Under the pieces are notes generated by a model. The model was not told where the DNA came from. It ran no database searches and saw only the letters and a list, made by a program, of their open reading frames with translations. A stretch of DNA of 64,000 nt, from IMG/VR virus record IMGVR_UViG_3300037400_004242; one strand, given 5' to 3'. Positions 10,133 through 63,055 of this stretch are shown in pieces (position 1 is the first letter of the stretch; each line of letters opens with the position of its first letter). Both the position numbers and the translations under genes were made by a program. Origin of the DNA: a virus (Duplodnaviria > Caudoviricetes).

Positions 10133-10146
10133 AGGAAGGGAAAATT

Positions 10147-12350: not shown

Positions 12351-12369
12351 AAGTTAGGATGGAGTATAA

Positions 12370-35875: not shown

Positions 35876-36963
35876 GAAATTTTCTTAAATCAAATATATC
35901 TAATATCTTTATTATGCTTGGACATGAGTGCAATTTACAATGTAAATATTGCTTACAACATGACGTAGTAAATGTTGCTCTAGATAAAAAAATTAATCCT
36001 GATATTTATTATTTTATTAATGATGTTGCTCGTAGTCAAGAAAATAGAGTTGGTTTACAATTCTATGGTGGTGAACCGCTTGTATTTTTTGATAAAATAA
36101 AAGAATTTGTGAATGGTTTACAAGAACATAATGTTCCTAATAATGTTTACTGCACGATGATTACGAATGGTAAATTATTAGATGAGGAAAAAGTAAAATA
36201 TATTAATCAGAATTTTTCTCATGTTACTATTAGTTGGGATGGAAGAAATTCTATTAAAACTCGTGGATATGATGTTATTAAAGAAAACAAAGAAAACATT
36301 TTTAAATTAAAGAGTTTCAATTTTTCAGGTGTACTTTCTTCATATAATTACATTAAAGACTATTTAGAAGATTGTGAACAAGTAAATCGTGATTATGTAG
36401 AAAATTATTATGGAAGAACATTGTACTTTAATGTTGATGATTTACTTGATGTAAATATGCAAAATCAAGATTTAAAAAATATTGATTTAGACATGGCGGC
36501 AATACAGATGAATGAATTGTGTGAAGAATATTATAATTTTGTCACGCAACATCAACCGATTAGTGTGATTCGTAAGCGATATATTGAGGAAAAAATAAAT
36601 TTCTTGCGTTCAAGTGTAAAGTCAAAACAATATCAGCCAATTCGTGATAGATGCGGAAATGGTTGTGAAGTTTTGAATATGGATTTAAGTGGTAATCTTT
36701 ATAAGTGTCATAATACAGATGATAAATTGGGAACAATTTATGACAATTATTTTGATTATATGAAAAAAGTTTTTGAATTGGATAAGGTAAATGAAAACTC
36801 AAAACGTTGTAATGAATGTCCTGTACAATTGATGTGTAGAAATGGATGCCCTCTTGTTGGAAAAGAAGCAAGAGAAGGATATTATTGTAACATGATTGTT
36901 TTTATGAATTACCCAATCATAAAACTTGTAGAAAAATTGGGTGGTGAAATAGATGTCAATTGA
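35872..36963 (+). CDS. Radical SAM/SPASM enzyme (locus I, B; paralog of A)
   Basis: CNLQCKYC, FYGGEP, SWDG; CGNG..DLSGNLYKCH...CNECPVQLMCRNGCP. Confidence 0.9.
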   Translation: MRNFLKSNISNIFIMLGHECNLQCKYCLQHDVVNVALDKKINPDIYYFINDVARSQENRVGLQFYGGEPLVFFDKIKEFVNGLQEHNVPNNVYCTMITNGKLLDEEKVKYINQNFSHVTISWDGRNSIKTRGYDVIKENKENIFKLKSFNFSGVLSSYNYIKDYLEDCEQVNRDYVENYYGRTLYFNVDDLLDVNMQNQDLKNIDLDMAAIQMNELCEEYYNFVTQHQPISVIRKRYIEEKINFLRSSVKSKQYQPIRDRCGNGCEVLNMDLSGNLYKCHNTDDKLGTIYDNYFDYMKKVFELDKVNENSKRCNECPVQLMCRNGCPLVGKEAREGYYCNMIVFMNYPIIKLVEKLGGEIDVN

Positions 36964-45934: not shown

Positions 45935-48643
45935 ATGTTAAATAAAGATATAACATTTTCATTAGATAGTTACGATAAGAAAAAATTCAAGCATGAAGTA
46001 TATGACCACAAGGATGTTTTCTATAGTAGAGAATATATTTATAATTTTAAATTTACAGTAAATATAGATAAAAATGAAATGCCAATTAATCATTTAATTA
46101 TTTATCGTAATGGTGAACCATATAACAATTGTAAGATTATACAAGTTGGGAATAAATCTTATGAGGTTAAAGATGATGTATGGATTCGTTATGGAAACAC
46201 ATGTTATGGTGTAGATGTCGTTCTTGAAGGTGGAAAAACATATCATAATTATTTCTATTTGAAAATTTTACAATCATATCAGCCAAATGATATTCGTTTT
46301 ATAAGTTTTGCAACGTATGGATTACATGAAAATTATTCTATGTTGGATGTAATTGCAAACATTCAGACAAAATATCAAATTGATAGAGTTTTATTATATG
46401 AACATATTTGTCCATTGACAGAGATAGATGAAAAAAGTCGTATATCTAAAATAAGTGAAATGAATGAAAGATATGATTCCAAAGAAATTAAATGGAATTA
46501 TTTGGGAAAAATGGATTTAATAAATCATCAATATCGTTTTCGTTATATGTTGTTTGATACGTCATTAACTGAGAATCGTACAGTATTATATAAGGCTGTA
46601 GTCGTAACAACAAATGAAGTTCGTAGAAGTGCAATTATGTCTACCATTATTAAACCTAATACAATGTCTGTTAATATATTTACATATATGAATACAGAAA
46701 CAAAAGAAAGATACGATATATATGGTGGATGTGTAGGACGTATTGATGCAAAAATTGATGAATACGACAATCCTGAATATAATGGCAAGATTTTTCAACT
46801 TTTAATAGATAAAAGAGACGATGAACAAAATTATTTAAAGTTGCTTGTCGGCGATGATTATAAATTTGAAGCAGATAATTATCATGTTGAATATAAAAGA
46901 AAGAAATTTAATCGTGTACAAACAAATCGTGACCCTAATATTTTTGAAATTTATGGTGATGGATTGGCTACAAAAGTTATTAATGAGGAAAGAGATTTAT
47001 ATCGTAGAGATAATTGTAGATTTTTAGTAACTTTATATTGCGGTGAAGATACTTTTGTTTCATTTAAAATTACTCCATTAAATGATAATAATTTGGCTGT
47101 TAACACGAATAAGACAGAAAATAATATTGTAAAATATTCTTATAATGGTGAATCCAAGATTATGGATAAACAATATTTGGATAAGACTGTAGATGTAAAT
47201 GCAATTCAAGGATATTATACATATAATAGAAAAACAGAAAATCTAATTTTTACAAATATTGATACAAAGGAACAACATATTACAATTATTCCTGATAAGC
47301 CAAAAGAATTATTGTTTCAGGAATTTGATTACATTACATATAACGATAAATATTTTTTCTTTGTCAACTTAGATAATAAAGGAATCCATATTACACGTTA
47401 TGATGGCGTTAATATTGATAAAATTGAATATTTTACAGAGATTATTAAGAGTTCATTAGATTGGATAAAGTCTCAGCAAATATTAAGTTTTGATAAAAAT
47501 AATAATTTAAATTTGAAATTTATATCTTCTAATGGCAGTAATTTTTTAAAGAAAATTGTTGTAGAAAATAATGATTTATCAGTTATTGATTATAGTGATA
47601 TGTTAGTAAATGTATTTAATGATATTCGTAAGCAGATGTTAAATTATGTTGATAATTTAAATTCTGTGACCGTTGGAAAAGTCGAATATATTATTAAAGC
47701 ATCAAATGTTTATGATACATTAGAGCATAAATTTGAGGATATGGGATATACGGATTTTAATTTGAAATTTACGACGCAATATTTTACATATCAAATCAAA
47801 TTCCCAATAGATGTTAAATTTTTAAACAAGACAACAAATGTTTATGTTCGTTTTCAAACGTCTATGACTGTTACTTGTAGAGAAGATGTTATTTTTTATG
47901 AGACGAATTATAGCTTAGGAAATCCAAGATTCGATATTGATATTGATAGTATTAATTTAACATATCATTATACAGATAATGGGAAAAATTTAATTCCTCA
48001 AGTTGGGTATGAAAAATTAAATCAAAAATATTTCTTGAAATTTAGTCAACCTGTAAACACATATACAAAAGAAGATTATGCAATTTTTAAACGTTGCGAT
48101 ATATATAATGGTGGAGCTAGTCTTTATAAGATAAATCCCGAAGATGTATATGGAAATGGGACAAAAGAAAAAACATTTAGGTATTCAGATTTATGTAGAC
48201 TACGTATTTTTATGCTAAATTATAAAGAGTACATGATTATGCGTTTTATGGGTGATAAATGCATGATGACAGTTGTTAATGTAGAATTGAAAGAGCAAAT
48301 ATCACAAGAAACTATTACAACAGATATGTATTTCGATAGTTTGTTCTATTTTACGAAAGAACAGCTTGTATCATTAGATGATTTGTTAAGTAGTGCATAT
48401 TTATATGATTCTGTAAAACGAAAAATGTATATTTGTGCATTGAGTGATTGTTATGTATTAGCTGTTGGTGGAACATATGATACATCATTTCATAATATGG
48501 AGAAATCGACTAGTTTAAGTGGTATTCCGTTAGATAATATGAAAACATATTTGTCTGAATATGAATTTAGTTATCCATTAAACATTAAAAATCGTAATCA
48601 TTATTTAAATGATATAGTCTTTAGTGAAGGGGTATATTCATGA
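45935..48643 (+). CDS. Large beta-rich hypothetical protein, possibly structural
   Basis: 902 aa, Tyr/Asn-rich; GAAAGGAG RBS; coupled to rSAM locus II by ATGA overlap. Confidence 0.6.
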   Translation: MLNKDITFSLDSYDKKKFKHEVYDHKDVFYSREYIYNFKFTVNIDKNEMPINHLIIYRNGEPYNNCKIIQVGNKSYEVKDDVWIRYGNTCYGVDVVLEGGKTYHNYFYLKILQSYQPNDIRFISFATYGLHENYSMLDVIANIQTKYQIDRVLLYEHICPLTEIDEKSRISKISEMNERYDSKEIKWNYLGKMDLINHQYRFRYMLFDTSLTENRTVLYKAVVVTTNEVRRSAIMSTIIKPNTMSVNIFTYMNTETKERYDIYGGCVGRIDAKIDEYDNPEYNGKIFQLLIDKRDDEQNYLKLLVGDDYKFEADNYHVEYKRKKFNRVQTNRDPNIFEIYGDGLATKVINEERDLYRRDNCRFLVTLYCGEDTFVSFKITPLNDNNLAVNTNKTENNIVKYSYNGESKIMDKQYLDKTVDVNAIQGYYTYNRKTENLIFTNIDTKEQHITIIPDKPKELLFQEFDYITYNDKYFFFVNLDNKGIHITRYDGVNIDKIEYFTEIIKSSLDWIKSQQILSFDKNNNLNLKFISSNGSNFLKKIVVENNDLSVIDYSDMLVNVFNDIRKQMLNYVDNLNSVTVGKVEYIIKASNVYDTLEHKFEDMGYTDFNLKFTTQYFTYQIKFPIDVKFLNKTTNVYVRFQTSMTVTCREDVIFYETNYSLGNPRFDIDIDSINLTYHYTDNGKNLIPQVGYEKLNQKYFLKFSQPVNTYTKEDYAIFKRCDIYNGGASLYKINPEDVYGNGTKEKTFRYSDLCRLRIFMLNYKEYMIMRFMGDKCMMTVVNVELKEQISQETITTDMYFDSLFYFTKEQLVSLDDLLSSAYLYDSVKRKMYICALSDCYVLAVGGTYDTSFHNMEKSTSLSGIPLDNMKTYLSEYEFSYPLNIKNRNHYLNDIVFSEGVYS

Positions 48644-49692
48644 GCCATGTTTTACAAATTCAAATGACAAATCAATGTAATTTAAAATGTGAATATTGTT
48701 ATATTCATCAAAATAATGATAAAATGTCGTTTGAAATGTTAAAACAACAAATTAAATATGTAAAACAATTATCAAACAGAATAGACGATGATTTTGATGG
48801 AAAATATGATGTTACATATTTTGGTGGGGAGCCGTTAATTGAATATCAAAATATATTAAAATTTGATGAATATTTAAAACAATCATTAAATGTGCAACAT
48901 TCTTTCATTCAAACAAATGGTATTTTGTTAGATAAAGAAAAAATTAAACAATTAAGAAAAAAGAATATTTATATTGGAATTAGTTGTGATGGTTGTAATG
49001 ATAAGAATCATATATATATTGAAAAAATTTTTCAAAATAAATGGTTGCCTGTAGAAGCAAAAATGATGATAAATAAGTATAACGTTTTTGACTTAATGAA
49101 AAATGTTATATATTTTTATCGTCAAGCGATGAAAGTTAATTGTGGAAATTTATATATAGATGTTTCTTTTGTAAAGGACAATACATGGGATAAACATTCT
49201 ATTATAGAATTAAGACAACAATTAAAAAATTTGTATGATTTTATGATGATGAATTATAGAGATTATCATCGTTGGATTGATATTGGATTTGTTAATAGAA
49301 TTTGCGCAAATATTTTGAACAAAAAACGAAATTATATTTGTTTTGCAGGAGTGAATGGATATAATTTAACTCCGGATGGAATTATTTATCCATGTGCTAG
49401 ATTTTATACAAATCATAAATATCCATTGTTTGATTCAAATAGTTATAAATTTTATGATAAAAATATAGATATAATAAAGCATTGGAATCGGACAAAAAAT
49501 GATAAATGTATGAATTGTGTATTGAATCAATTTTGTAATCAAGGATGCTTATATTCTCAAATTAATAACAATGGAATTATTGATATGTATTGTGATGTAT
49601 TAAAGTCATGCTATCATATGGTAACAACTTTGTATAAAACGATGAAAAATGAATATAATGTGAATATATTAAAGAAAGTTGGTAAGATTTAA
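48640..49692 (+). CDS. Radical SAM/SPASM enzyme (locus II, A)
   Basis: CNLKCEYC, YFGGEP, QTNG; CFAG..TPDGIIYPC...CMNC..NQFCNQGC..C. Confidence 0.9.
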   Translation: MSHVLQIQMTNQCNLKCEYCYIHQNNDKMSFEMLKQQIKYVKQLSNRIDDDFDGKYDVTYFGGEPLIEYQNILKFDEYLKQSLNVQHSFIQTNGILLDKEKIKQLRKKNIYIGISCDGCNDKNHIYIEKIFQNKWLPVEAKMMINKYNVFDLMKNVIYFYRQAMKVNCGNLYIDVSFVKDNTWDKHSIIELRQQLKNLYDFMMMNYRDYHRWIDIGFVNRICANILNKKRNYICFAGVNGYNLTPDGIIYPCARFYTNHKYPLFDSNSYKFYDKNIDIIKHWNRTKNDKCMNCVLNQFCNQGCLYSQINNNGIIDMYCDVLKSCYHMVTTLYKTMKNEYNVNILKKVGKI

Positions 49693-50757
49693 ATGGAAAA
49701 ACCACCTATTAGTGTTTCAATAAATATGGGAAGTGCTTGTAACTTTCGCTGTAAATATTGTTTTGAGGTAAAGAATGGTGCAGTTAATGATTCTAAAAGA
49801 CTTCAACAAAAAGTGAAAGAACGAGTTATTGATGTTATTAAATTATTGACTGAAACAAATAAAGTTCGTATTGAATTTTGGGGTGGTGAGCCGACAGTAT
49901 ATTTTGATGACATTTATGAAATTATTGAAGCAACGAAAGCATATGAAGAAGTAACCTATTTTATGTATACAAATGGTTCTTTGGTTGAAAAATATAGTAA
50001 AGAATTGCTTCAAATAAAAAATGATGTTGGGCATCGTTTTCAAGTACAAGTTTCTTATGACTATCATGATTTAAAAAATAATCAACGCATTCAATTGAAT
50101 AAGACAGTTGAAGAAACTGAAAAAATGGTATTAGATGCGATTCATTTTTTTGATGATAATGATTTTTTCTTCGGAACAAAAACAACTTGTACAATGCATG
50201 ATTTAGAAGAGAATTTATTTCATCAATATATGAATTTTGAAAATTTAAATAAAACATTAAAACATAAAGTAAATTTTAATCCAACACCTGATACATTAGG
50301 TGTTGGAAATGTTAATTATAATAAAATAGAAAAACAATTTATTCAATTGTTAAAATATTTTGTTAAAAATAAAAAGTTTGGGAAAACAGGATTCATGTGG
50401 TTTGATATGCCATCTAATGCAGATTGTACAGGTGGAATACATTCGTTTCAAATAGATGTTGACGGCAGAGTTACATATTGCCATGGATGTTTATATAGTA
50501 AGAAAGATTTGTTTTACACTTCTGTATTTGATGATAATTTTCTTCATAAAGTAGATTATAATTATCTTGCAGTATATAGAAAATACAAGAAAAATAGTCA
50601 ATGTTCAGATTGCAATTCACAATTCTGTTTCAGATGTAACGCAATTAATAGTGATGGAAACATAGAAGATTGGGATAAATCAAATATTCCTGATGTTTGT
50701 AAATTATATAATAAAATTTCAGATTATATCCGCGCCTATTACAAAATAACTCATTAA
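49693..50757 (+). CDS. Radical SAM/SPASM enzyme (locus II, B)
   Basis: CNFRCKYC, FWGGEP, YTNG; CTGG..DVDGRVTYCHGC...CSDCNSQFCFRCNA..C. Confidence 0.9.
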   Translation: MEKPPISVSINMGSACNFRCKYCFEVKNGAVNDSKRLQQKVKERVIDVIKLLTETNKVRIEFWGGEPTVYFDDIYEIIEATKAYEEVTYFMYTNGSLVEKYSKELLQIKNDVGHRFQVQVSYDYHDLKNNQRIQLNKTVEETEKMVLDAIHFFDDNDFFFGTKTTCTMHDLEENLFHQYMNFENLNKTLKHKVNFNPTPDTLGVGNVNYNKIEKQFIQLLKYFVKNKKFGKTGFMWFDMPSNADCTGGIHSFQIDVDGRVTYCHGCLYSKKDLFYTSVFDDNFLHKVDYNYLAVYRKYKKNSQCSDCNSQFCFRCNAINSDGNIEDWDKSNIPDVCKLYNKISDYIRAYYKITH

Positions 50758-50819: not shown

Positions 50820-52397
50820 ATGGCGATATGTACGGACACAAAATATGTAGAGGGATTTTATCAAATTGTAGAACCTCCACAATTTTTAAAAGACATGTTT
50901 CCAATTTGTAGACCTTTTGGTGACCCCGGTGATGACAAAAGTTATGAATTCGGGAGTAGTTATTGGAGCGGGTTCGATTCTACTTCTCGTGATGAAGCAT
51001 CAAGTCGTGGATTAAGTAATCGTAAAGGTCGTTTAAAAGATTCTTTTAGTGTTACAGATAAAGTTACGAATAAAGATTGGAACTGTGCAATTGTAAAATT
51101 GAAACAAGAATTTGCTATTCGTTGCGGTTTTAAGCATAATTGGATTCCATTTGTAGAACAAACGGGAGATTTTGGATTATCCAATCATTTAGGATATTTC
51201 CGTGATGGTATTAAAGGCGGAAGTGATGGTGATAGTGACCCAACGCAAGGCGAAAAAACGGATATTGTATATCGTAGAGATATGCAAAAAATATACTTAG
51301 ATATTATTCGTTTGCTAGACTATGAAGTTCCAATGTATTCCGTAGAAGATGGAAGCAAAAATCCTCGTTTCCCAGAGTTTAGAGGTATTTTTTCTAATGA
51401 TTATGGTAAAGTTGGGGACTACAATTCTATTTTAAAAGAAATTGTTGATATTGATGATGCTGATAAATTTTTAAAACAAGGGAATAATGTGTTTTTACCT
51501 CCTGATAATAAAGCATCTGAGAAAAAATGGAAATATTTTCATTTAAATGATAATGTTATTGGCTATCCTGGTGAACCAGCTTCTTCTTGTGCAAAATATG
51601 AAGGAAAATTAGAGAGTTTTGGTGATAACTATCCACCTGGTGGTTCAATTAACATTGACCAGCTAAACGATTGGGAAAGTCGTTATACATTAGGTACTGA
51701 TGCATATGATTTTAAAAAAATGACCAAGAAACGTATTTTGCAATTCATTGGTGCGTCTCAACCTTGGTATCGTAAGTCCGATTCATTATTGGATTGGGAC
51801 GATGGTATTTTTATTGATTATTGGCAACCAAAAAGAGATACTGATGATTTCGCATACGCTCAAGAAATAGTTCCTAATACATATTATCCATATGGAAATA
51901 AGGATTATACAGAAGATGGTGGAGCAGGTGGAAAAGAACCAAAGCCATCAGCATTATATAAAGCTGTACAAGAATTTAGAAAGAAATTTATAAATCCTGC
52001 AAAAGAAACTACAGATAATGATTTATTAGTTTCTGCCAAAATTTCAAAAACAGCTACAGTTGATAGAGATTTATATGGTAATCCAATTACACAAACTGTA
52101 GAAGAAGATGCATCATTTTCAGTAGCATATGTTATGAGACATGCTTATACAGAGTTTCAAACGGTAGATAAATATGGCGATGATGGAAAACTAATTAGTA
52201 GAATGACAATCGGCGGTGATAAAATTATCGTTGATGCTAACTCTGTCGCAAATGTGTTTATGAAAACAATAAATAAAATTTCAGATATTTGCGTTTGTAA
52301 CTGCAATTATTGTTCTTGCTTTGGTAATGAAGTTACATGCTTATGCTATGTTGTTAAGGTAACAGGTTGGTGCTATTCATACATGTATGTATATTAA
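50820..52397 (+). CDS. Protein with Cys-rich C-terminus, putative structural protein and rSAM substrate
   Basis: Ends ICVCNCNYCSCFGNEVTCLCYVVKVTGWCYSYMYVY (8 Cys); follows the SPASM pair; Gly/Asp-rich body. Confidence 0.6.
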   Translation: MAICTDTKYVEGFYQIVEPPQFLKDMFPICRPFGDPGDDKSYEFGSSYWSGFDSTSRDEASSRGLSNRKGRLKDSFSVTDKVTNKDWNCAIVKLKQEFAIRCGFKHNWIPFVEQTGDFGLSNHLGYFRDGIKGGSDGDSDPTQGEKTDIVYRRDMQKIYLDIIRLLDYEVPMYSVEDGSKNPRFPEFRGIFSNDYGKVGDYNSILKEIVDIDDADKFLKQGNNVFLPPDNKASEKKWKYFHLNDNVIGYPGEPASSCAKYEGKLESFGDNYPPGGSINIDQLNDWESRYTLGTDAYDFKKMTKKRILQFIGASQPWYRKSDSLLDWDDGIFIDYWQPKRDTDDFAYAQEIVPNTYYPYGNKDYTEDGGAGGKEPKPSALYKAVQEFRKKFINPAKETTDNDLLVSAKISKTATVDRDLYGNPITQTVEEDASFSVAYVMRHAYTEFQTVDKYGDDGKLISRMTIGGDKIIVDANSVANVFMKTINKISDICVCNCNYCSCFGNEVTCLCYVVKVTGWCYSYMYVY

Positions 52398-53448: not shown

Positions 53449-53715
53449 ATGGAGAATAAAACTTTAACAGAAGAAGAAAAAAAAGATTTTATGGAAAAAA
53501 TGGCGAATATAATTAATTATATGGAAGCCACAAGAAATATTATTTATCCTATGGATAAGATATTGTATCAAACAATTAATAATATTTTATCAATGTATAT
53601 GATTAGTTTAGGAAGAAAAGTTGGTATGGAATATGAAGAACTAGAAAAAAAGTATTCCAAAGATGAATCTGAAGTTGATGATATTATTGATAAAATTAGT
53701 AAGGAGACAGAATAA
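53449..53715 (+). CDS. Hypothetical protein (continuation of the rSAM locus II operon)
   Basis: Its apparent original RBS (AGAAAGGA, 52401) lies on the other side of the IscB element. Confidence 0.55.
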   Translation: MENKTLTEEEKKDFMEKMANIINYMEATRNIIYPMDKILYQTINNILSMYMISLGRKVGMEYEELEKKYSKDESEVDDIIDKISKETE

Positions 53716-54353
53716 TGGGAAAACAAATGTTATTTTTTTGCGGAATAATAACAATTAATAATGTTAATTTTTTGGTAAATCCTTTTACAAAAATTGAGGG
53801 TGAACCTGTTCTTCTGAGCAGAGATGCATATGTTCAGCTAACTGCTGAAGCATATGATTTCGTCACAAATGTTTTAGATTTATCACATAGAGAACCACAA
53901 TGCAAAGTTTATATTGAATGTTCTCCAACAGAAAAAGAAATTTTTGACAGAGACGATTTGAAAATTAATGAAGAGTTAAATAATGAGTCTCCTGAAGATA
54001 AACTTGATGCATATAAAGAAAAATGTATTCGTTTGATGAATGAAATGATTTCAAATCAACTTATGATTTCTAATTTTGAATTATATCATTTCTTTAAATT
54101 GAATCATTATCTTGAATCTAAAGGTTTCTTTATTACAGATGAAAATCGTGAAGAAAAGTATTTGGAAGTTATTAATAGTGGTGATGCAGAAGCACTTGAG
54201 AAACTTTCTGAATATTTGGATTCATTAGATGAATTTAATGCGATTGATGATATTTATATGCGTTATAAGGAATTTAAAGACAAGGTTAAGGTTGCTAAGA
54301 ATGAACAAGAAATTAAAGATGCATACATCGCCATGTCAAAAGCAACATTTTAA
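53715..54353 (+). CDS. Hypothetical acidic helical protein (possible fibre assembly chaperone)
   Basis: Translationally coupled ORF; function guessed from position only. Confidence 0.45.
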   Translation: MGKQMLFFCGIITINNVNFLVNPFTKIEGEPVLLSRDAYVQLTAEAYDFVTNVLDLSHREPQCKVYIECSPTEKEIFDRDDLKINEELNNESPEDKLDAYKEKCIRLMNEMISNQLMISNFELYHFFKLNHYLESKGFFITDENREEKYLEVINSGDAEALEKLSEYLDSLDEFNAIDDIYMRYKEFKDKVKVAKNEQEIKDAYIAMSKATF

Positions 54354-55149
54354 TATTGTTTATATGACTAATGAATCATATTTGTTTCAAACATATGTTT
54401 CTATTAGTTCATTGAAGATGAATAAACATCATAACATCAGTTATGATGTTTATTTGTTATGTATTGAAATGCAAGATATTGGAGATATAAAAAAATTAAA
54501 TGATGAGGATTTTTGTATTCATTCAATTTATATTGAACGTAATATTTATAGATATGATGCTAATGCAGGTGTTGTATATTATAAAATGATTTTACACGAA
54601 TTATTGGATGTGGATACAGTATTTCATATTGATTCAGATACAGTTGTTATTGATGATGTTTCAAGTATTTTTGATTATAATTTAACCGATTATTTTTGTG
54701 GTGGTGTAAAAGATAAAATTAAAGGATTGAAATACTTTAATGCAGGAAATGTGTTGTTAAATTTAAAAAAAATACGAGAAACATTATATGATAATGAATA
54801 TACAATGTATGATTATTTTTGGCAATTAGATAAAGAATTAAGAGATAAAAAAGGATTCCTTTGGGAACAAGATGTTTTTAATAAGGCTTTTGAAAATAAG
54901 ATTTTATATATTAATTATGGCTATAATTTTTTGGTGAATACTTATAGCCAATATAAGTTTAATGATTTAAGTAGAATTTATGGAGAAAAAGTAGATTATA
55001 AAAAAATTAAAATATTACATTTTGCAAGTCATCCAAAACCGTGGATAAAAACAAATTTATTTGGTGAAATTTGGAAAATGTATGCAGAAAATAAAGTAAA
55101 TAAAGAATTAGAACAGAAAATATTGAGGGTGGCGTGTCGTGAGTATTGA
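54229..55149 (+). CDS. Glycosyltransferase family 8 (start probably 54319)
   Basis: HIDSDTVV (DxD), YFNAGNVLLNL, EQDVFN, ILHFASHPKPW. Confidence 0.9.
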   Translation: MNLMRLMIFICVIRNLKTRLRLLRMNKKLKMHTSPCQKQHFNIVYMTNESYLFQTYVSISSLKMNKHHNISYDVYLLCIEMQDIGDIKKLNDEDFCIHSIYIERNIYRYDANAGVVYYKMILHELLDVDTVFHIDSDTVVIDDVSSIFDYNLTDYFCGGVKDKIKGLKYFNAGNVLLNLKKIRETLYDNEYTMYDYFWQLDKELRDKKGFLWEQDVFNKAFENKILYINYGYNFLVNTYSQYKFNDLSRIYGEKVDYKKIKILHFASHPKPWIKTNLFGEIWKMYAENKVNKELEQKILRVACREY

Positions 55150-56293
55150 TAGAAAACAAGCATTATTAATGCAATTTATGTTAGGTTCAAATTTAAAAGT
55201 AAAAAAAAGAGATAAAGATAAAATATTAGTTACTTGTAATATAGCTACCCGTCAAGGACACCAATATTTATGGGGAGCAGAAAAATATTGTATGAAAATT
55301 TGTCATCAGTTGGCAAAAAAATATGAAGTACATTTGTTTCAACAAGCAGAAAATTTTTTAAATTGTAATGATATTATTGTGCATCCACATATTTATAATT
55401 TTTTTTCTCGTTCAAAATTATTAGAAGTTGCTTTTAAGGCTTCTATGGTACAACCAAGATGCATTTTATGTAATGCAGGAACAGGTTCACAAGCGTTATT
55501 TTGGACAATTGTAGCAAAAATTATTGATGTTCCAATTATTATGTTTTTACATAATGAACCAACTTTTATAAAAGATACAATTTCTCCTGAATGGGGTATG
55601 TATTATGTTCGTGGTCAAACAATTATGAAAGATAAAGATATGCTGTATGATTTCGTCTTAGATTATTGTGATGAATTAGCATTTTTATTACCGCAATATA
55701 TAGATAGTAAATATAAAGATAAAACTTATGTGTATCTTAATTGTATTGATATTCCTAACAATGTAGATGTTGAATCAGATAGAAAAAATTTGTTGTATGT
55801 TGGTAGAATTAATACCGATGTTAAACGTACACAAATATTGTTAGATTGGGTTAAAAATACAGAATATGCTTGTAAAGTATGTGGCTATAATTATCAAGAA
55901 GATGGGTATCTTGATATGAATCAATATCAAAAATATAAAAATATAAATTTTTTAGGATACCATAAAAATATGGATAACATTTATCGTGAATCTAACGTAT
56001 TAGTTATTCCATCTTTATATGAAGGACTTCCAACAGTTGCATTAGAAGCATTATCTTATGGTATACCAATTGTTGGATTTAAAGAATGTAAATCTATGAA
56101 TGATATTATTCAGGATGGATATAATGGATGGCTAGTAGATAATAACTTTTCAGATGTTATGGAAAAAGTAATGTCTATAAAAGATATGAGACAAATTCGT
56201 AAGAATTGCTTAAATGAATCGAAAAAATATGATATAAATAATATTATGAAAACAATTTTTAAATCAATAGAGGATGTTAAATGTGAAGATTAA
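55139..56293 (+). CDS. Glycosyltransferase family 4 (GT-B)
   Basis: GAEK, LYVGRI, VIPSLYEGLPTVALEALSYGIP. Confidence 0.9.
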   Translation: MSIDRKQALLMQFMLGSNLKVKKRDKDKILVTCNIATRQGHQYLWGAEKYCMKICHQLAKKYEVHLFQQAENFLNCNDIIVHPHIYNFFSRSKLLEVAFKASMVQPRCILCNAGTGSQALFWTIVAKIIDVPIIMFLHNEPTFIKDTISPEWGMYYVRGQTIMKDKDMLYDFVLDYCDELAFLLPQYIDSKYKDKTYVYLNCIDIPNNVDVESDRKNLLYVGRINTDVKRTQILLDWVKNTEYACKVCGYNYQEDGYLDMNQYQKYKNINFLGYHKNMDNIYRESNVLVIPSLYEGLPTVALEALSYGIPIVGFKECKSMNDIIQDGYNGWLVDNNFSDVMEKVMSIKDMRQIRKNCLNESKKYDINNIMKTIFKSIEDVKCED

Positions 56294-57206
56294 TTTAATT
56301 TACTATTTATATGAAGTGAATGGTGCATTTACTTCATTTGAAGATACATTTTATAATTTAAGCAAGTTTACAAATCATAATGTTAATTTCTTTATTTTAT
56401 ATGAAGATAAATATATGTTAGCACAATTTAAAAAATATCTTCCAAAAGGCTCAGGAATTTGCTTATTAGAATTACCAAAAACTCCAGATAAAGGAACGAA
56501 TTTATATAAACGTGTTGCAGTTAGGGAAGTATATCATACAATGGTATATAATATAAAAGGTGACATTAATATTATTAGTTCTGAAGTTATTCGATTACAA
56601 AAAGCAAATAGAATTAAACAGAGTGCAAGTCAAGAAATGTTGTTATATCCTGCATTTATATATAAAGAACAAGGATTAGATAAAACTTTTTACAATGATG
56701 AACAAGAATATATTAAAAATAATGATGTACTTGTAATATGTAATAAATTTAATACAAAGTATGTTAATAATTCATTTGTTTGGTATATGCAATTTTCAAA
56801 AGAAAGAATTGAACAATTAAAAAAACTTGTTTCTAATGAAAATGATGTTTTATGTGCTGAAGAATATTATAAAAATAAAATGAATTGTAAAAATATTGAA
56901 CCGTTTTCATATAAGAAATATGAATATTATAGATATGATAAAAAAAATGAAACAAATTGTTATACAGATGATGGAGCAAGATATTATGAAAATATTGGAA
57001 AATTAATGTTTGAATTTGTTTTACTGGGAAAAGAATCATCATATTCTCCAAGAAATAAACAATTTGATGATGGATTGACAGAATTCATGAATTATTTGGG
57101 ATACGATGATAATCAATTATATTGGTGGAATCATAAGGATATTTCTTATTTAGAAAAAAGATTGTTTATGAACAAAGAAAATAAATTGTTATCTTTATTT
57201 AAATAA
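56274..57206 (+). CDS. Divergent GT-B-like protein (paralog of 27949-29328)
   Basis: NGAFTSFEDTFYNL; ENIGKLMFE (EX7E); DDGLTEF; located within the glycosyltransferase cluster. Confidence 0.45.
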   Translation: MLNVKINLIYYLYEVNGAFTSFEDTFYNLSKFTNHNVNFFILYEDKYMLAQFKKYLPKGSGICLLELPKTPDKGTNLYKRVAVREVYHTMVYNIKGDINIISSEVIRLQKANRIKQSASQEMLLYPAFIYKEQGLDKTFYNDEQEYIKNNDVLVICNKFNTKYVNNSFVWYMQFSKERIEQLKKLVSNENDVLCAEEYYKNKMNCKNIEPFSYKKYEYYRYDKKNETNCYTDDGARYYENIGKLMFEFVLLGKESSYSPRNKQFDDGLTEFMNYLGYDDNQLYWWNHKDISYLEKRLFMNKENKLLSLFK

Positions 57207-57208
57207 AA

Positions 57209-58816
57209 TTGGGAGAAGGTTCATCAATGAAAATTCTTGGAATACAATGTTATCAAGATTATAATGTAACATATTTTGATACAGTTACAAAAGATTTGAA
57301 ATATACAGAACTTGAAAAATTATTGAAGAAAAAACATTTTTCTTTTCATTCTGATAAAATAGATTATATGCCTGAAATTGATAGAATTTACGATGATAAT
57401 TTAAGAAATAATTTATATAAATGTCAGCGTATTATTCATGAAGAATTAGGTGTAAATAGATTTGATGTTGTTTGTTGGAATTACAAAACTTTTAAAGATG
57501 GATATTTAAAACAAGAATCTTATGATTTTGTAAAAATGTTAGAGCGTTGTGATGTTTTGAAATTTCATCATCAAGAGAATCATGTATTACCTACGATTTT
57601 TGAATATGATTTAAAAGATGCATTATGTTTTTCAATTGATGGAAAAGGTGACGGGAACCATGCTTTTTATCATTGGAAAGATAATAAATTAAATTTGTTG
57701 TTTCAGGAAAAAGCATTTTCTTATGGAATGTTTTATGAAGTCTTAGCATGTTATTTCTTAGATAAGAAGAATCAGTATGAACAAGGGTTAGAAGGAAAAT
57801 ATATGGCTTATGCAGGTTTGTCTAATAAATTCCTTGAACTTGAAAATATTGATGCTTTTATGAATGAAGTAAAAAAGACAAATTGGAATATATGGGAAGA
57901 TAAGATTGAAGTAGAAAAATTTATTTATAATTATTTAGATAAAATGTCAGAAAAATATGATAAATATGATTTGGCATATACTATGCAAAAATTATGGATA
58001 AATAATGTTATGGCTGATATAGCAAAGTATCGTCATGAAAGTGAAAATTTTGTAATTTCAGGTGGATGTGCATTAAATTGTATGTTAAATTATGAGATTA
58101 TAAAAACTGGATGGTTTAAAAATGTGTATTATACACCTATTGTTTCAGATGTTGGACAATCATATGGAGCAGTATTAAATTATTTATTGCATTATTCTCC
58201 TGAAAATTTAAAATTTGTAGATTCTGATGATTTTTCTATTACAGAAGGTATTCGAGATAAAAAATATTTTGATTCTATTTCTTCTAATTTTCATACATAT
58301 CAAATAGAAGAAATTTCATCAATATTAGAAAACGATGGAATTGTTGGAATATGTCGTGGAAATATAGAAATGGGACCTCGTGCATTAGGGAATCGTAGTA
58401 TATTGGCTTCACCTTTTCATAAAGAAATGCATGATAAATTAAATAAAATAAAAGGAAGAGAATGGTATCGTCCGTATGGAGTTATTGTTCCAAGAGAATA
58501 TTTATCACGTTATTTCGATATTGATGTTGATGTAAAATATATGAATATGTTAGCATATCCAAAAGACAAAGATGTACTTTTGGGAGCGCAACATACAGAT
58601 GGAACAATTCGTATTCAAACTGTTTCAGATGAAGATAATCGTTGGTTACATGATTTATTATTAACTTTTGGACAAAAAACAGGAGTTCCAATTTTAATTA
58701 ATACATCATTTAATGATGGTGGTATGCCAATTTTTAATTATATGAAAGACATGTATCGTATGTATAATGAAAAATTAAATGCTCTCGTTTATGAGAATAA
58801 GATGGTGTCAAAATGA
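57209..58816 (+). CDS. O-carbamoyltransferase (NodU/CmcH/TobZ family); start probably 57227
   Basis: HHQENH, DGKGD, EGKYMAYAG, SGGCALNC, EMGPRALGNRSILA, KGREWYRPY, HTDGTIRIQTV, LINTSFN. Confidence 0.92.
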   Translation: MGEGSSMKILGIQCYQDYNVTYFDTVTKDLKYTELEKLLKKKHFSFHSDKIDYMPEIDRIYDDNLRNNLYKCQRIIHEELGVNRFDVVCWNYKTFKDGYLKQESYDFVKMLERCDVLKFHHQENHVLPTIFEYDLKDALCFSIDGKGDGNHAFYHWKDNKLNLLFQEKAFSYGMFYEVLACYFLDKKNQYEQGLEGKYMAYAGLSNKFLELENIDAFMNEVKKTNWNIWEDKIEVEKFIYNYLDKMSEKYDKYDLAYTMQKLWINNVMADIAKYRHESENFVISGGCALNCMLNYEIIKTGWFKNVYYTPIVSDVGQSYGAVLNYLLHYSPENLKFVDSDDFSITEGIRDKKYFDSISSNFHTYQIEEISSILENDGIVGICRGNIEMGPRALGNRSILASPFHKEMHDKLNKIKGREWYRPYGVIVPREYLSRYFDIDVDVKYMNMLAYPKDKDVLLGAQHTDGTIRIQTVSDEDNRWLHDLLLTFGQKTGVPILINTSFNDGGMPIFNYMKDMYRMYNEKLNALVYENKMVSK

Positions 58817-59568
58817 AACATATACCGTTGATTGAATATCATTTGGTGAATCATTGCAATTTAAATTGTAAAGGCTGTGCTCATTTTGCACCATTAGCAA
58901 AGCCTTGGTTTGCAAATATAAATAAATTTGAAAAAGATTTAAAACAGTTGTCTTCTTTAGTGATTATTGATAAATTAACTTTATTCGGTGGAGAACCATT
59001 ATTGCATGATAACATTAATGATTTTTTAATAATTGCTAGAAAAATTCTTCCGAATACAGATATTAGTATTTTAACAAATGGGATTTTATTGTTGAAAAAA
59101 TTAGGTTCGCTTGCAAAAGTAATGAAAGAAAATAATATATATATGGATATTACTTGTTATCCTATTCCTGTTAAATATGAATTAGGGCTAAAAATGTTGA
59201 AAACGCTTAAAGTTCCATATCGTATATATAATGATATGGAACGTGTAAAAACATTAAGACATCATTTTCTTTCTCATAAAAAGGAAAAAAATAAATGGGA
59301 ATGTTTGATGATAAATTCAAATTCAGTTCAATTAAGAAATGGGAAATTATATATATGTCCTTTACAAGCATATATTGATATTTTTAATGAGTATTTTCAT
59401 GAGAATTTTAAAGTAGACAATAATGATATTTTAGATATTTATCATTGTACGGATGATGATATATTAAATATGTATCATAGGAAAAATGATTTTTGTGAAT
59501 ATTGTAGAGAACCAATAGAAGGGAATAAATATTCTACATCTAAAAAGGAGAAATCAGAATGGATGTAA
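58813..59568 (+). CDS. Short radical SAM enzyme (HFAP group, copy 2)
   Basis: CNLNCKGCAHFAPLAKPW, GGEPLLH, TNG, LYICP, FCEYC. Confidence 0.88.
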   Translation: MKHIPLIEYHLVNHCNLNCKGCAHFAPLAKPWFANINKFEKDLKQLSSLVIIDKLTLFGGEPLLHDNINDFLIIARKILPNTDISILTNGILLLKKLGSLAKVMKENNIYMDITCYPIPVKYELGLKMLKTLKVPYRIYNDMERVKTLRHHFLSHKKEKNKWECLMINSNSVQLRNGKLYICPLQAYIDIFNEYFHENFKVDNNDILDIYHCTDDDILNMYHRKNDFCEYCREPIEGNKYSTSKKEKSEWM

Positions 59569-60380
59569 AATATTGTTTAAAAACACAAATTGTAGATGAA
59601 TGTAATTTAAATTGTAAAGGTTGTGACCATTTTGCTCCATTAGCAAAACCTTGGCATCAATCTTTACCTGATTTTGTTGATATGATAAAAACGATTCGTA
59701 ATACAGTTGGAGATAACATAAAAGAAATTGAATTATATGGTGGGGAGCCATTATTACATCAACAATTATATGAAATGATTTTAGTTCTAAAAGTTTTATT
59801 TGGAAATAAAATTGTAATTTCAATTGAAACAAATGGAATTTTATTGGACAAATTTTTACAACATCATAAAGATTTAATAGATGATAACAAAATAGAATTT
59901 AAAATTACAGAATATAAAGCAACAAAAGGAATTATTGATAAATTAAAGAAAAAATATCTAAATAATGATATATATCAAGCGGCTATGTTAAAAAATGAAA
60001 TTAAACTAGCAGATGATATAACTTATAAAGAAAATATGTTTAATGTGAACATAAATAAAACAAAAGAAACAGACACAAATAAAATTTTAAATATATATAA
60101 AAATTGTTATTGCAAGAGTGAAGAAGAAGATTCTTTATGTTTGAGAAATTGGGTATTGTCTCCTTGTCCTATGACAATGTGTTTGAATATTTTTGATAAT
60201 TTTTTCAATGAACAATATGATTCTGAAAAAAATCATATAATAGTTACAAATAATTTATCTAAAAAAGATTTGGATAAAATGGCACATTATCCATGTGATT
60301 TTTGCAAAAGGTGTGGAAATGTTGTTTATGGAATACCATATGGCATTTCTAAAAAGGAAAGGGTAGAATGGCAGATATAA
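59559..60380 (+). CDS. Short radical SAM enzyme (HFAP group, copy 3)
   Basis: CNLNCKGCDHFAPLAKPW, GGEPLLH, ETNG, PCP, FCKRC. Confidence 0.88.
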   Translation: MDVKYCLKTQIVDECNLNCKGCDHFAPLAKPWHQSLPDFVDMIKTIRNTVGDNIKEIELYGGEPLLHQQLYEMILVLKVLFGNKIVISIETNGILLDKFLQHHKDLIDDNKIEFKITEYKATKGIIDKLKKKYLNNDIYQAAMLKNEIKLADDITYKENMFNVNINKTKETDTNKILNIYKNCYCKSEEEDSLCLRNWVLSPCPMTMCLNIFDNFFNEQYDSEKNHIIVTNNLSKKDLDKMAHYPCDFCKRCGNVVYGIPYGISKKERVEWQI

Positions 60381-61300
60381 AATTTTATATTATTATTCCA
60401 ACATATAATCGTTTCGAGAAAATAAAAAATGCAATACAAAGTGTATTGCGACAAACATATGATAATTATCATATCATTATAGTGGATGACCATTCAAATG
60501 AAGATAATTATATGAATTTAAAAAAGTATATTGATAATAATGATAAAATATCATATTATTATTTAACTAAAAATATGGGACATTGTTATGCTAGAAATTT
60601 TGCCTTGAAACAAATTATAAAATTAGATAGTTGGATAAAATATTTAGATGATGATGATGTAATATTACCAAATTGTTTACAAGATATATATGAATATATT
60701 AAAGAAAATAAAAATTTAAATGTTATCACGACAGATTATAATATTTTAGATGAGCATAATAATATTATTAAATGTATGCACCCAAATTATAATGTAGAAA
60801 GCGTATTTAACGGAAATCTAGATACATGTTGTATTTGTCATAAATATTCATTATATCAACAACTGGGTGGATGGGATACGAAATTGTTTCGTATGGCAGA
60901 TGATGATTTTTTCTTTAATTATATTTCTAATGGAAAATATGGATATTTAAACAAAATAACATCTGTATTTTATAGAACTAATGATAAGTCAAGAGTAACT
61001 AAGCAAGTATCTAATTTAAAATTTGTAAAATATATAGCTGATAAATATGCATATTTTAATAAAAAATGTTTGATTAAAACAGAAGAAAAATACATAGATA
61101 GTATTAATAATGCTGAATATAATATTGAATCGTTTATGAAATTTGATATTAATAAAAAATTAACAAATGATTATGATTTTATTATTATGATTAATGATAA
61201 TGATGTTATTAATGAAATTTTTCAACATTATTGGAAAACAAAGGAAAAACATTTTAAAATTAAAAATTCATTATTTATAGAAAATAAACTAAAAAAATGA
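60368..61300 (+). CDS. Glycosyltransferase family 2 (paralog of 9149-10132)
   Basis: IIIPTYNR, VDDHS, ARN, YLDDDD, shared DTCCI motif. Confidence 0.9.
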   Translation: MADIKFYIIIPTYNRFEKIKNAIQSVLRQTYDNYHIIIVDDHSNEDNYMNLKKYIDNNDKISYYYLTKNMGHCYARNFALKQIIKLDSWIKYLDDDDVILPNCLQDIYEYIKENKNLNVITTDYNILDEHNNIIKCMHPNYNVESVFNGNLDTCCICHKYSLYQQLGGWDTKLFRMADDDFFFNYISNGKYGYLNKITSVFYRTNDKSRVTKQVSNLKFVKYIADKYAYFNKKCLIKTEEKYIDSINNAEYNIESFMKFDINKKLTNDYDFIIMINDNDVINEIFQHYWKTKEKHFKIKNSLFIENKLKK

Positions 61301-61328
61301 TATAATACCTATATCTTGAATTTAGAAA

Positions 61329-61568
61329 GTGAGGAAGAATATTATGTCAGAAGAACTTAAAACAAATGAACAAGCAGTAGATTCTACAACAGCAGTTATG
61401 GATAATCGTCAATGGGAAAAATTTGCTAAAGGAGATTTAGTTAATTTTCTTGTTAGTCATGGATTGACTAAAATTACTGCTGATGATGGTGCTGGTAAGA
61501 AAGCTGTTGTAAAGTTTACGACAAAAGGAGAATATAACGTAAGCTATACAACAACAGAACTTCTATAA
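61329..61568 (+). CDS. Hypothetical protein
   Basis: GAGGAAG RBS; start probably 61344. Confidence 0.55.
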   Translation: MRKNIMSEELKTNEQAVDSTTAVMDNRQWEKFAKGDLVNFLVSHGLTKITADDGAGKKAVVKFTTKGEYNVSYTTTELL

Positions 61569-61571
61569 GAA

Positions 61572-61910
61572 GTGATTTTTATGGAAACATCTTTTGATAA
61601 ATATAATAACAATGATACGGATAAAAATACGCAACGATTACAATCTATTTTAGAAGGAATCGTTACTATTATGAAACAGAATGAATCTTTAAAACAACAA
61701 ATATCTGAACTATCTAATCGTGTATCTGTTATAGAACATAATGCACAAGTCCAATTGCGTTCAATTGGAGATACATTAGTTTTAACAAACAACATTACAA
61801 ATGATATTGATGATATAAAAGAAAAAATATCTTCTGTTTCTGATAAAGTTGATAATGTAGATTATGATATTAAAAATATTCGTATCTTTAAGTATTACAA
61901 TGGTGAATAA
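61572..61910 (+). CDS. Coiled-coil hypothetical protein
   Basis: Heptad-like sequence, followed by a terminator hairpin (about 61919-61954). Confidence 0.55.
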   Translation: MIFMETSFDKYNNNDTDKNTQRLQSILEGIVTIMKQNESLKQQISELSNRVSVIEHNAQVQLRSIGDTLVLTNNITNDIDDIKEKISSVSDKVDNVDYDIKNIRIFKYYNGE

Positions 61911-61966
61911 TTTATATAATAGCAGAGAAAGCCAATTTTCTCTGCTATTTTTTATGAGGTGAGAAC

Positions 61967-62407
61967 ATGGATGAAATAAATATCGGTTTTGTTGGATATA
62001 GTAATATGAATTTTGATATTGAAAAAGCAAAATCAATTATTTATGATATTTTTGATGTCATTGAAAACAAATATTGTAACGAAGAAAATTTAGAGACAAA
62101 AATAAATATCATTTCAGGCGCAACAGATATAGGAATACCGTCATTAGTATATAATGTTGCTGATAATGAGAATTTGAAATATGGAAAATGGTTTACATTG
62201 GTTGGAATTATGGCAAAAGAAGGATATAAATATCCATTATATCCTTGCGACAAAATATATGCTGTTGGAGAACATTTTGGAGAAGAAAGTGAATTTTTCT
62301 TAAATAAATTAAATGCTTTATATAAAATAGGTGGAGGAAAACAATCAGATAAAGAATCTGAACTTGCAAAAAGAAAAGGCATAGTAGTATATGAGTATTC
62401 TTTATAA
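61967..62407 (+). CDS. SLOG/LOG-like Rossmann-fold nucleotide-binding protein
   Basis: IGFVGYS, ISGAT..GI, GEES..F, IGGG.QS..E pattern. Confidence 0.45.
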   Translation: MDEINIGFVGYSNMNFDIEKAKSIIYDIFDVIENKYCNEENLETKINIISGATDIGIPSLVYNVADNENLKYGKWFTLVGIMAKEGYKYPLYPCDKIYAVGEHFGEESEFFLNKLNALYKIGGGKQSDKESELAKRKGIVVYEYSL

Positions 62408-62491: not shown

Positions 62492-63055
62492 TTGTATAAG
62501 GTTAAATTGACTGGCAATTATAATGTCTACGTACAAGACCTTAACTTTGAATTTACTCCGATTAGGCCAGAGAAGAATTTTTCTGATGAAGAATTTGAAA
62601 ACTCTGAAGATATAAAATCATTTTTAGGTAAGTATCTTGAAGCAACTAAAGGAGCAAAATCAAATGCAACAACTGTTGTTGTAACTAAAAAGGTTCATTC
62701 CGATGTACAAGAAGTTCCATCGAAGAAAGATAAATCAGAAGAAAAACCTGTAATAAATGCAACAAATGCTTCTAAAACTACTTCTGCTGATGTCAAAAAG
62801 AAAGAAAAGACTTTAGAGGAAGAGAAAAAAGGAAGCAAGGATGATACAATTGTTGATGCTACAAATGCTTCTTCTACAAATTCTTCTACAACAAAATCAG
62901 CCAATAAGAAAGATGAAAATCTAAAAGATGATAGCGTTGTAGTAGCTGATGGTGCTTCAAAGACAAGTGCTACTACTAAAAATACGTCTGCTACAAAGGC
63001 TAAAAAGCCAGCTAGTAAGACAACAAAAAAGACAACTACAAAATCTACGAAATAA
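62492..63055 (+). CDS. Protein with Ser/Thr/Lys-rich low-complexity tail
   Basis: Repeats VINATNASKTT / IVDATNASSTNSSTT / VVADGASKTSATT. Confidence 0.65.
   Translation: MYKVKLTGNYNVYVQDLNFEFTPIRPEKNFSDEEFENSEDIKSFLGKYLEATKGAKSNATTVVVTKKVHSDVQEVPSKKDKSEEKPVINATNASKTTSADVKKKEKTLEEEKKGSKDDTIVDATNASSTNSSTTKSANKKDENLKDDSVVVADGASKTSATTKNTSATKAKKPASKTTKKTTTKSTK

Follow-up and report, generated by a model that had tools for sequence, protein, structure and literature searches.

A conserved jumbo-phage operon of glycosyltransferases, a carbamoyltransferase and short radical SAM enzymes that probably assembles and tailors a sugar chain

Radical S-adenosylmethionine (rSAM) enzymes of the twitch type that act on sugars have, as far as we know, been studied in only a handful of antibiotic pathways. 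In butirosin biosynthesis the rSAM dehydrogenase BtrN feeds BtrR (BtrS), an aminotransferase of the DegT family; SpeY is a natural dehydrogenase, and HygY, NeoN and AviX12 are rSAM sugar epimerases. Virus-encoded virion glycosylation is known from the capsid and tail proteins of mycobacteriophages and from the amino-sugar pathways of the Mimivirus fibrils, where soluble virus-encoded glycosyltransferases (and in Mimivirus also a DegT-type aminotransferase) decorate virion proteins. We know of no such system in mycobacteriophages or Mimivirus that contains rSAM enzymes or a carbamoyltransferase. Here we describe an operon at positions 53715-61949 of a 64,000-nt stretch of the viral record IMGVR_UViG_3300037400_004242 (the whole stretch is hereafter called the window), in which several glycosyltransferase genes are found together with a carbamoyltransferase gene and two genes for short rSAM enzymes. 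We consider it probable that this phage locus serves, in the cytoplasm, to build a sugar chain and to tailor it.

The DNA of the window comes from an uncultured jumbo phage of low GC content, not from a bacterial antibiotic cluster. Its G+C content is ~27 %, nearly all of its ORFs lie on the + strand, and Pfam marks it as a large phage, with matches to a capsid-family protein, HNH/NUMOD endonucleases, phage endonuclease I, TnpB and a helicase. The Pfam scans took in 58 window ORFs. Five of these were shorter than 150 aa; of the ORFs reaching that length, all were included except three, namely one short form and a pair of overlaps on the minus strand. The closest relative was a 174.5-kb IMG/VR contig (G001), with proteins ~84-98 % identical to those of the window, and was compared alongside two further relatives, G003 (152 kb, 86 % complete) and G004 (281 kb, 98 % complete; completeness by CheckV). 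The operon itself was syntenic in five related viral contigs of 27-281 kb (L002-L006), at 32-84 % identity, and had no match among cultured phages by blastn.

We found the operon to be one tightly coupled unit with a terminator at its end. The eight genes between 53715 and 61300 either overlap their neighbours by 4-20 nt or lie 2 nt apart, the sole exception being the GT8 ORF as listed; because this ORF overlaps the preceding gene by 125 nt, translation probably begins further in, at the ATG at 54301 or the one at 54319. Every gene named in an earlier reading of the sequence (the original prediction) was recovered, namely those for GT8, GT4, a protein with an EX7E motif, a carbamoyltransferase, two rSAMs and a GT2 (GT denoting glycosyltransferase), all by Pfam apart from the EX7E ORF, which had no match. 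The features of the operon are as follows.

53715-54353, + strand: first gene, encoding a 212-aa protein, with a strong ribosome-binding site; no family match in Pfam or NCBIfam; 50-62 % identity in L002-L006
54229-55149, + strand: GT8 retaining glycosyltransferase (PF01501, E 1.7e-18, 67.6 bits); relatives 57-66 % identical
55139-56293, + strand: GT4 glycosyltransferase of the GT-B type (PF00534, E 1.1e-22), in which the EX7E motif reads EGLPTVALE; relatives 53-57 % identical
56274-57206, + strand: the 'EX7E protein', compact and GT-B-like by AlphaFold2 (AF2) model and structure search
57209-58816, + strand: two-domain O-carbamoyltransferase (PF16861, E 1.7e-47; PF02543, E 3.1e-16); relatives 59-71 % identical
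58813-59568, + strand: short twitch rSAM, SpeY-like and of the Ser type (Radical_SAM and Fer4_12 in Pfam); orthologues in L002-L006
59559-60380, + strand: second short twitch rSAM, a paralogue (Radical_SAM and Fer4_12 in Pfam)
60368-61300, + strand: GT2 glycosyltransferase (PF00535, E 2.6e-27) with DDD and DTCCI motifs
61329-61910, + strand: two small ORFs (79 aa, and a 112-aa coiled coil with a weak DUF948 match), assigned to the operon by position only
61918-61949, + strand: hairpin resembling an intrinsic terminator, a 14-bp stem followed by a T run

The GT8 protein carries the GT-A motifs DSD (DxD) and HFASHPKPW (of the HxxGxxKPW type). A pair of genes paralogous to the rSAM-GT2 end of the operon lies at 8376-10132 (+ strand; sequence comparison, Pfam) and consists of a Ser-type rSAM (8376-9158) and a GT2. 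This confirms the duplication that had been proposed from the shared motifs: the three short rSAMs are 30-41 % identical and the two GT2s 33 % identical, with DTCCI in both of the latter. At all three 3' junctions of the short rSAM genes (9149, 59559 and 60368) the downstream ATG is embedded in the GAA-TGG codons for a conserved Glu-Trp, and a Shine-Dalgarno-like AAGGA or AGGAG lies upstream of it within Lys-Lys-Glu or Glu-Arg-Asn codons. This arrangement indicates that translation of each short rSAM is tightly coupled to that of the gene downstream.

In total, the window encodes seven rSAM genes, four of the SPASM type (PapB-like) and three of the short twitch type, such that the count of three in the original prediction is right for the short enzymes but not for rSAM genes as a whole. 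The short proteins are 251-273 aa long; CNLNCKGCxHFAPLAKPW is invariant among them, and they also have GGEPLL, TNG and a C-terminal EW in common. The product of 59559-60380 is 30 % identical to that of 8376-9158 and 32 % to that of 58813-59568. Across 20 diverse family members the CX3CX2C cysteines (C15, C19 and C22) and GGEPLL are invariant. Three C-terminal cysteines (C182, C228 and C231) are invariant as well, and a fourth, upstream of them near residue 163, is widely kept, giving a spacing (+19, +46, +3) close to that of the ligands of the auxiliary cluster in BtrN. A profile built from the 20 sequences matched SpeY (7WZV) in the PDB with an E-value of 1.2e-22 and BtrN, over its full length, with 8e-9. 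Likewise, the AF2 model of the 58813-59568 product (predicted local distance difference test, pLDDT, 91) superposed on SpeY with a Z-score of 24.4 and a root-mean-square deviation of 2.4 Å over 240 of 251 residues; BtrN came second at Z 14.9 and the remaining rSAM folds reached at most 14.8. As the profile matches, the model superposition and the C-terminal cysteines agree, we place the short rSAMs in the SpeY/BtrN class of twitch rSAM enzymes, as putative sugar enzymes, which bears out the BtrN-like character first suggested for them.

SpeY (7WZV, 7WZX and 7X0B), the twitch rSAM dehydrogenase of spectinomycin biosynthesis, is the best match in both sequence and fold, and has CxxxCxxCxH(L/F)(S/A)PL and GGEPLLH in common with the phage rSAMs; the identity, however, is only 17-19 %, and whilst the substrate of SpeY, an enzyme of antibiotic synthesis in actinomycetes, is a free aminocyclitol pseudo-disaccharide, the phage enzymes are coupled to GT2 in a glycan operon. 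BtrN (PDB 4M7T) has the same twitch architecture but is a much weaker match. NCBIfam gave no equivalog match for the rSAMs, the DegT proteins or the glycosyltransferases; for the short rSAMs its matches covered only about the N-terminal 100 residues, none near a cut-off, and a SPASM-domain model was listed only for a longer paralogue (35872-36963), not for the short copies (for 8376-9158, among the best 25 matches). Two other assignments were rejected: a peptide-modifying role, given the lack of a SPASM domain and the SpeY-like fold, and identity as QueE or an NrdG activase, for which the matches were weak and N-terminal only.

A profile search shows the family to be large: 1,980 representative clusters match with E ≤ 1e-30, and the number rises to 6,007 with E ≤ 1e-10. 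Relatives of the short rSAMs are encoded in 393 stretches of bacterial or archaeal species genomes, which come mostly from anaerobes (Lachnospiraceae, Gastranaerophilales, spirochaetes, Bacteroidales, Campylobacter and Desulfobacteraceae). At bacterial and archaeal loci the commonest family among the immediate neighbours was GT2, upstream in nine of 67 cases and downstream in four of 72; group 1 glycosyltransferases were found three times upstream and 12 times downstream, further copies of the same rSAM four times upstream and six times downstream, and methyltransferases were also common. DegT genes lay within 10 kb of a family member at only three of 78 bacterial loci, each time more than 5 kb away. 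Moreover, among the 28 family representatives longer than 520 aa, 16 are fusions of an N-terminal GT2 with a C-terminal rSAM; Pfam confirmed the fusion in seven of nine that were checked, and an eighth has a putative glycosyltransferase domain, DUF6716. Since gene fusion, gene overlap and neighbourhood agree, these data all point to a glycosyltransferase, above all GT2, as the likely functional partner of the family, rather than an aminotransferase. Some family representatives (P0121, P0122 and P0160) are tandem rSAM-rSAM fusions, and about half of the best 144 carry an N-terminal extension of ~100-130 aa that has no membrane-spanning segment.

A tblastn search with the rSAM gave just two matches, one in a cyanophage and one in a marine virus, with identities of 21-27 %. 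Synechococcus phage S-SCSM2R (PQ898602.1), an isolated cyanomyovirus, encodes a family member (95 bits to the profile) whose gene overlaps that of a glycosyltransferase. The operon there (L101 3134-9887) encodes, in order, a glycosyltransferase, a GT25, another glycosyltransferase, a DegT-like protein, a Cys-type rSAM, a glycosyltransferase, a 2-oxoglutarate (2OG) oxygenase, an amidinotransferase and a GT2. Its ORF302-310 were called 'antibiotic synthesis genes' by the authors, without any test (PMC12801897). This unrelated large phage resembles ours in that the gene of its family rSAM overlaps one for a glycosyltransferase and has a DegT-like gene and more glycosyltransferase genes next to it, but differs in that the rSAM is of the Cys type, 2OG oxygenases and an amidinotransferase are added and there is no carbamoyltransferase.

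In L002-L006 the order first protein, GT8, GT4, EX7E protein, carbamoyltransferase, rSAM and GT2 is kept, and an orthologue of 58813-59568 is present in every one of the five contigs. The second rSAM (59559-60380) is shared with G001 alone (the L002 orthologue is 75 % identical); L003-L006 instead have another rSAM copy, of the Cys type, which is located after GT2 and an additional paralogue of the EX7E protein. The set conserved across the clade consists of one Ser-type rSAM with its GT2, one DegT, a 6-dehydrogenase, the glycosyltransferases and the carbamoyltransferase.

The terms Cys type and Ser type refer to a site 11 residues before the invariant cysteine of an 'LYxC' motif. It is occupied by Cys in 86 of 95 copies from bacterial and archaeal loci and in 129 of 147 representative domains of the family, whilst Ser takes its place in all three short rSAMs of the window and in the orthologues of these in other phages. 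The aligned residue of SpeY (chain index 203) is likewise Ser; it equals residue 183 if the tag is 20 residues long, as we assumed; the range of 9-265 in the protein's own numbering is consistent with this. In HygY, Cys183 is said to be the hydrogen donor, and its replacement (C183A) reportedly turns the epimerase into a dehydrogenase. HygY, NeoN and AviX12 follow the same chemistry up to the substrate radical, whereupon a Cys returns the hydrogen; a Cys of this kind, on the presumption that the sites are equivalent, is kept at the aligned site by most of the family but lacking in the phage copies. If this equivalence holds, most family members are probably glycan epimerases, and the Ser hints that the phage rSAMs may be dehydrogenases that leave a keto-sugar. 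When 65 sequences of the family were placed in a tree, the Ser lineages of the phages formed three separate, well-supported groups on an unresolved backbone.

For the EX7E protein, a model was built with AF2 from an alignment of ten homologues, including a second GT-B-like paralogue in the window (27949-29328, + strand; alignment, phmmer E 6.8e-12). The model (pLDDT 81) was searched (VIA) against ~48,000 PDB representatives. The top matches, which extend over the whole protein, were BshA (Z 13.6, ~250 residues), PimA (12.7) and the T4 alpha-glucosyltransferase (12.3); GT-B glycosyltransferases made up 44 of the 50 matches listed, and the other six were mostly of GT-B fold, for example UDP-GlcNAc 2-epimerases. 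An ENIGKLMFE motif is conserved among the homologues. From the model we interpret the protein, which has no Pfam match or assigned CAZy family, as the fourth glycosyltransferase of the operon, and a compact one.

The product of 57209-58816 is predicted to be an ATP- and carbamoyl-phosphate-dependent O-carbamoyltransferase of the NodU/TobZ/NovN family. It matched NovN (E 5.8e-32) and TobZ (1.7e-28) in the PDB, and also GdmN. Its Kae1-like N-terminal and YrdC-like C-terminal domains scored above the Pfam cut-offs (PF02543, 60 bits; PF16861, 162 bits), and an HHxxxH motif at residues 120-125 aligned with the His motif of NovN, albeit in a very weak segment of the alignment. TobZ, NovN and NodU share this two-domain architecture (E 1e-28 to 6e-32) and each carbamoylate sugar hydroxyls; the N-terminal domain of the phage enzyme is divergent from theirs, the Pfam match beginning at profile position 89. 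The 'Nol-like' carbamoyltransferase copies of cyanophages are only ~27 % identical to it.

Beyond the operon, the rSAM-GT2 pair at 8376-10132 belongs to a sister cassette (6700-13440), which lies inside the head-gene block and adjoins the capsid gene. This cassette and the remaining sugar genes of the window include the following features.

10147-13440, + strand: three tandem DegT aminotransferases (PF01041, E 5e-61 to 9e-76)
21861-24059, + strand: kinase-like triplet, two intact copies and one split, by paralogy
24066-25385, + strand: nucleotide-sugar 6-dehydrogenase, NAD-type (TIGR03026, 295 bits, above cut-off); relatives 47-60 % identical

The gene order at 8376-13440 is rSAM, GT2 and three DegTs, of which only 12370-13440 has orthologues in all relatives. 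In the head-gene block of G003 and G004 the orthologue of this DegT is the only one left, a DXS-like gene, the rSAM and GT2 being missing, and no intact rSAM stands beside it. G004 retains, upstream of this DegT (L099 9813-10242; G004:C1:81812-82241), a 107-aa rSAM fragment and a fragment of a short-chain dehydrogenase/reductase (SDR) epimerase or dehydratase that covers Pfam positions 182-227 of 240. The slot upstream of the lone DegT turns over and at one time held a conventional enzyme; we read the two fragments as what is left of alternative keto-sugar suppliers. Regarding the kinase-like genes, three paralogues were found as predicted, but the third is split into two ORFs (23423-23791 and 23814-24059) and may therefore be a pseudogene. 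Two such genes are present in G004 and none was detected in G003. The nearest named protein-atlas clusters, APH and Kdo/WaaP kinases, offer only a lead as to what these genes may encode.

The supply of keto-sugars was examined in the window and its relatives. Neither an SDR dehydratase/epimerase nor a GFO/IDH/MocA oxidase was found in the Pfam scans of the 58 window ORFs, in agreement with the original observation that no NAD-dependent sugar 3/4-oxidase or dehydratase was visible, and the NAD-type enzyme that was found is the 6-dehydrogenase at 24066-25385. It is closest to TviB, a UDP-GlcNAc 6-dehydrogenase, at 271 bits, below the cut-off of the TviB model. The search for WbpB-like oxidases was extended beyond the window to G001, G003 and G004, where no GFO/IDH/MocA proteins were found, and the decayed SDR fragment was the only conventional keto-sugar-forming enzyme in the 98 %-complete G004. 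Compared with the WbpA/WbpB/WbpE route, which leads to 3-amino uronic acid sugars, members of the 6-dehydrogenase and DegT families are matched here, but the GFO/IDH/MocA 3-oxidase was not found in any of these sequences and no acetyltransferase was seen.

These results bear directly on the original proposal that three rSAMs, three aminotransferases and three kinases form a set echoing aminoglycoside-type chemistry, in which the short rSAMs oxidize sugar hydroxyls for the DegTs to give an aminated, carbamoylated and possibly phosphorylated glycan. In the strict form of this relay each rSAM serves one DegT, and the product is aminoglycoside-like, multiply aminated, carbamoylated and phosphorylated. 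The class of the rSAMs (BtrN/SpeY, with the phage copies of the Ser type), the rSAM-GT2-DegT order in the sister cassette, the lack of an intact SDR or GFO/IDH/MocA oxidase among the window ORFs scanned and in the relatives, and the S-SCSM2R operon, with its family rSAM beside a DegT-like gene and an amidinotransferase, all speak for such a relay. However, rSAM and DegT numbers do not co-vary (3:4 in G001, 2:1 in G003 and 2 plus a fragment to 1 in G004); the lone DegT of G003 and G004 persists with no intact rSAM adjoining; the operon has two rSAMs and no DegT, and is equally DegT-free in the five relatives; and, unlike BtrR for BtrN, DegT is not a conserved partner of the family to which the phage rSAMs belong, as the three of 78 bacterial loci illustrate. 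Because the 3:3:3 count fails in the relatives and is specific to this genome, 'aminoglycoside-like' describes the type of enzyme only. Furthermore, as no cyclitol-forming enzyme (2-deoxy-scyllo-inosose synthase or myo-inositol-phosphate synthase) was seen in the Pfam scans of the 58 window ORFs, in contrast to the butirosin system, nothing shows an aminoglycoside product. We therefore regard the relay in its strict form as unlikely, and three parallel rSAM-DegT relays are not supported; a single rSAM serving a single DegT in trans, mainly for the cassette at 6700-13440, is possible.

Two further explanations concern the target of the operon rather than its chemistry. It might glycosylate and carbamoylate hydroxymethyl-pyrimidines of the phage DNA: one known carbamoyltransferase of phages produces 5-carbamoyloxymethylcytosine (PMC8670742), the T4 alpha-glucosyltransferase is among the structural matches of the EX7E model, and the window encodes dUTPase_2-family and deoxyribosyltransferase-like proteins. 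DNA-modifying carbamoyltransferases co-occur with thymidylate-synthase homologues, whilst on unmodified contigs the genes next to the carbamoyltransferase are those of group 1 glycosyltransferases (PMC8670742). Given that no thymidylate-synthase-like hydroxymethylase (PF00303) was found in the scanned window ORFs, G001, G003 or G004, and that the glycosyltransferase flanks here resemble those of the unmodified contigs, DNA hypermodification appears highly improbable; a Tet/JBP search also found nothing, a weak result in that the control genomes were silent too. Alternatively, the operon could remodel the host cell envelope during infection (teichoic or teichuronic acid, capsule or S-layer glycan), thereby blocking superinfection or aiding release. 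In line with this, the best partial NCBIfam matches of the GT2, the GT4 and the dehydrogenase include TuaG, TuaC, TuaD and TviB, and the bacterial members of the rSAM family sit in glycan loci. These scores nevertheless fall far below the family cut-offs, a simple hydropathy scan revealed no membrane-spanning segment in the operon proteins, Pfam identified no flippase, polymerase or priming transferase among the window ORFs scanned, and the sister cassette is located in the head-gene block. Envelope remodelling is thus, in our judgement, rather unlikely. Because the enzymes are soluble, the capsid gene lies next to the sister cassette and a jumbo phage of lytic type has conserved the module, we tentatively favour a virion or other phage protein as the acceptor, at slightly less than even odds; a host envelope polymer, a small molecule and DNA rank below it.

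For the assembly and tailoring of a sugar chain by the operon, the following course can be envisaged. The four soluble glycosyltransferases (GT8, GT4, the compact GT-B and GT2) would join sugars from host nucleotide sugars into a short oligosaccharide. Each rSAM would use a 5'-deoxyadenosyl radical to remove hydrogen from the CH-OH carbon of the sugar residue handled by its partner GT2, and the second iron-sulfur cluster of the rSAM would accept the electron. Family members of the Cys type would probably return the hydrogen to give an epimer, whereas the Ser-type phage copies would more probably release a keto-sugar. The conserved DegT (12370-13440) may then act in trans to aminate the ketone, the carbamoyltransferase would cap a hydroxyl and the kinase-like genes may add phosphate. 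Several points weigh against this account. Fold and motifs do not demonstrate activity on sugars. The characterized twitch sugar enzymes act, to our knowledge, on free pseudo-oligosaccharides, so that a glycan residue or nucleotide sugar as substrate is an extrapolation. The distinction between epimerase and dehydrogenase relies on the reported HygY C183A result and on the SpeY alignment, and the 59559-60380 product has a Cys two residues after the Ser that might do the same job. Finally, enzyme searches of this genome cover the window, and the host supplies further enzymes.

A bolder version of this scheme would have giant phages of anaerobes make amino-sugars on the assembled glycan with no NAD-dependent oxidase: GT2 adds a common sugar, the coupled Ser-type rSAM oxidizes it to a ketone and DegT aminates it, and the product, carbamoylated and perhaps also phosphorylated, ends up on the virion. 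Taken as a whole we consider this chain of events unlikely.

Three other proteins near these loci were recorded in passing. Just past the terminator, 61967-62407 encodes a conserved 146-aa protein that lacks a Pfam match and has a GxxGxS...SGATDIG pattern reminiscent of nucleotide-binding domains of the LOG/DprA type (SLOG). The conserved protein encoded at 62492-63055, 1.2 kb downstream of the operon, is 187 aa long and consists of a small domain at the N-terminus followed by a long tail rich in Ser, Thr and Lys (14 % Thr, 11 % Ser and 19 % Lys); it could be an O-glycosylation acceptor or carry a DNA-binding tail. Upstream of the operon, a 525-aa protein (50820-52397, with 48640-50757) follows the second rSAM/SPASM pair; its Cys-rich C-terminal tail (DICVCNCNYCSCFGNEVTCLCYVV) looks like a built-in substrate for thioether-type cross-linking, and the protein shows only ~28 % identity in the relatives.

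The short rSAMs of this phage belong to a family of ~2,000 clusters, mostly from anaerobes and giant phages, which is wired or fused to GT2 and is as yet uncharacterized. This suggests a general, oxygen- and NAD-independent mode of sugar editing during glycan assembly, in which the single Cys/Ser site offers a simple handle on the switch from epimerase to dehydrogenase. If the bolder scheme is true, the change from Cys to Ser would be a natural epimerase-to-dehydrogenase switch within this large family of GT2-coupled glycan-editing enzymes. The operon is a conserved and costly phage module, and knowledge of its target would reveal whether gut jumbo phages add sugars to their own particles.

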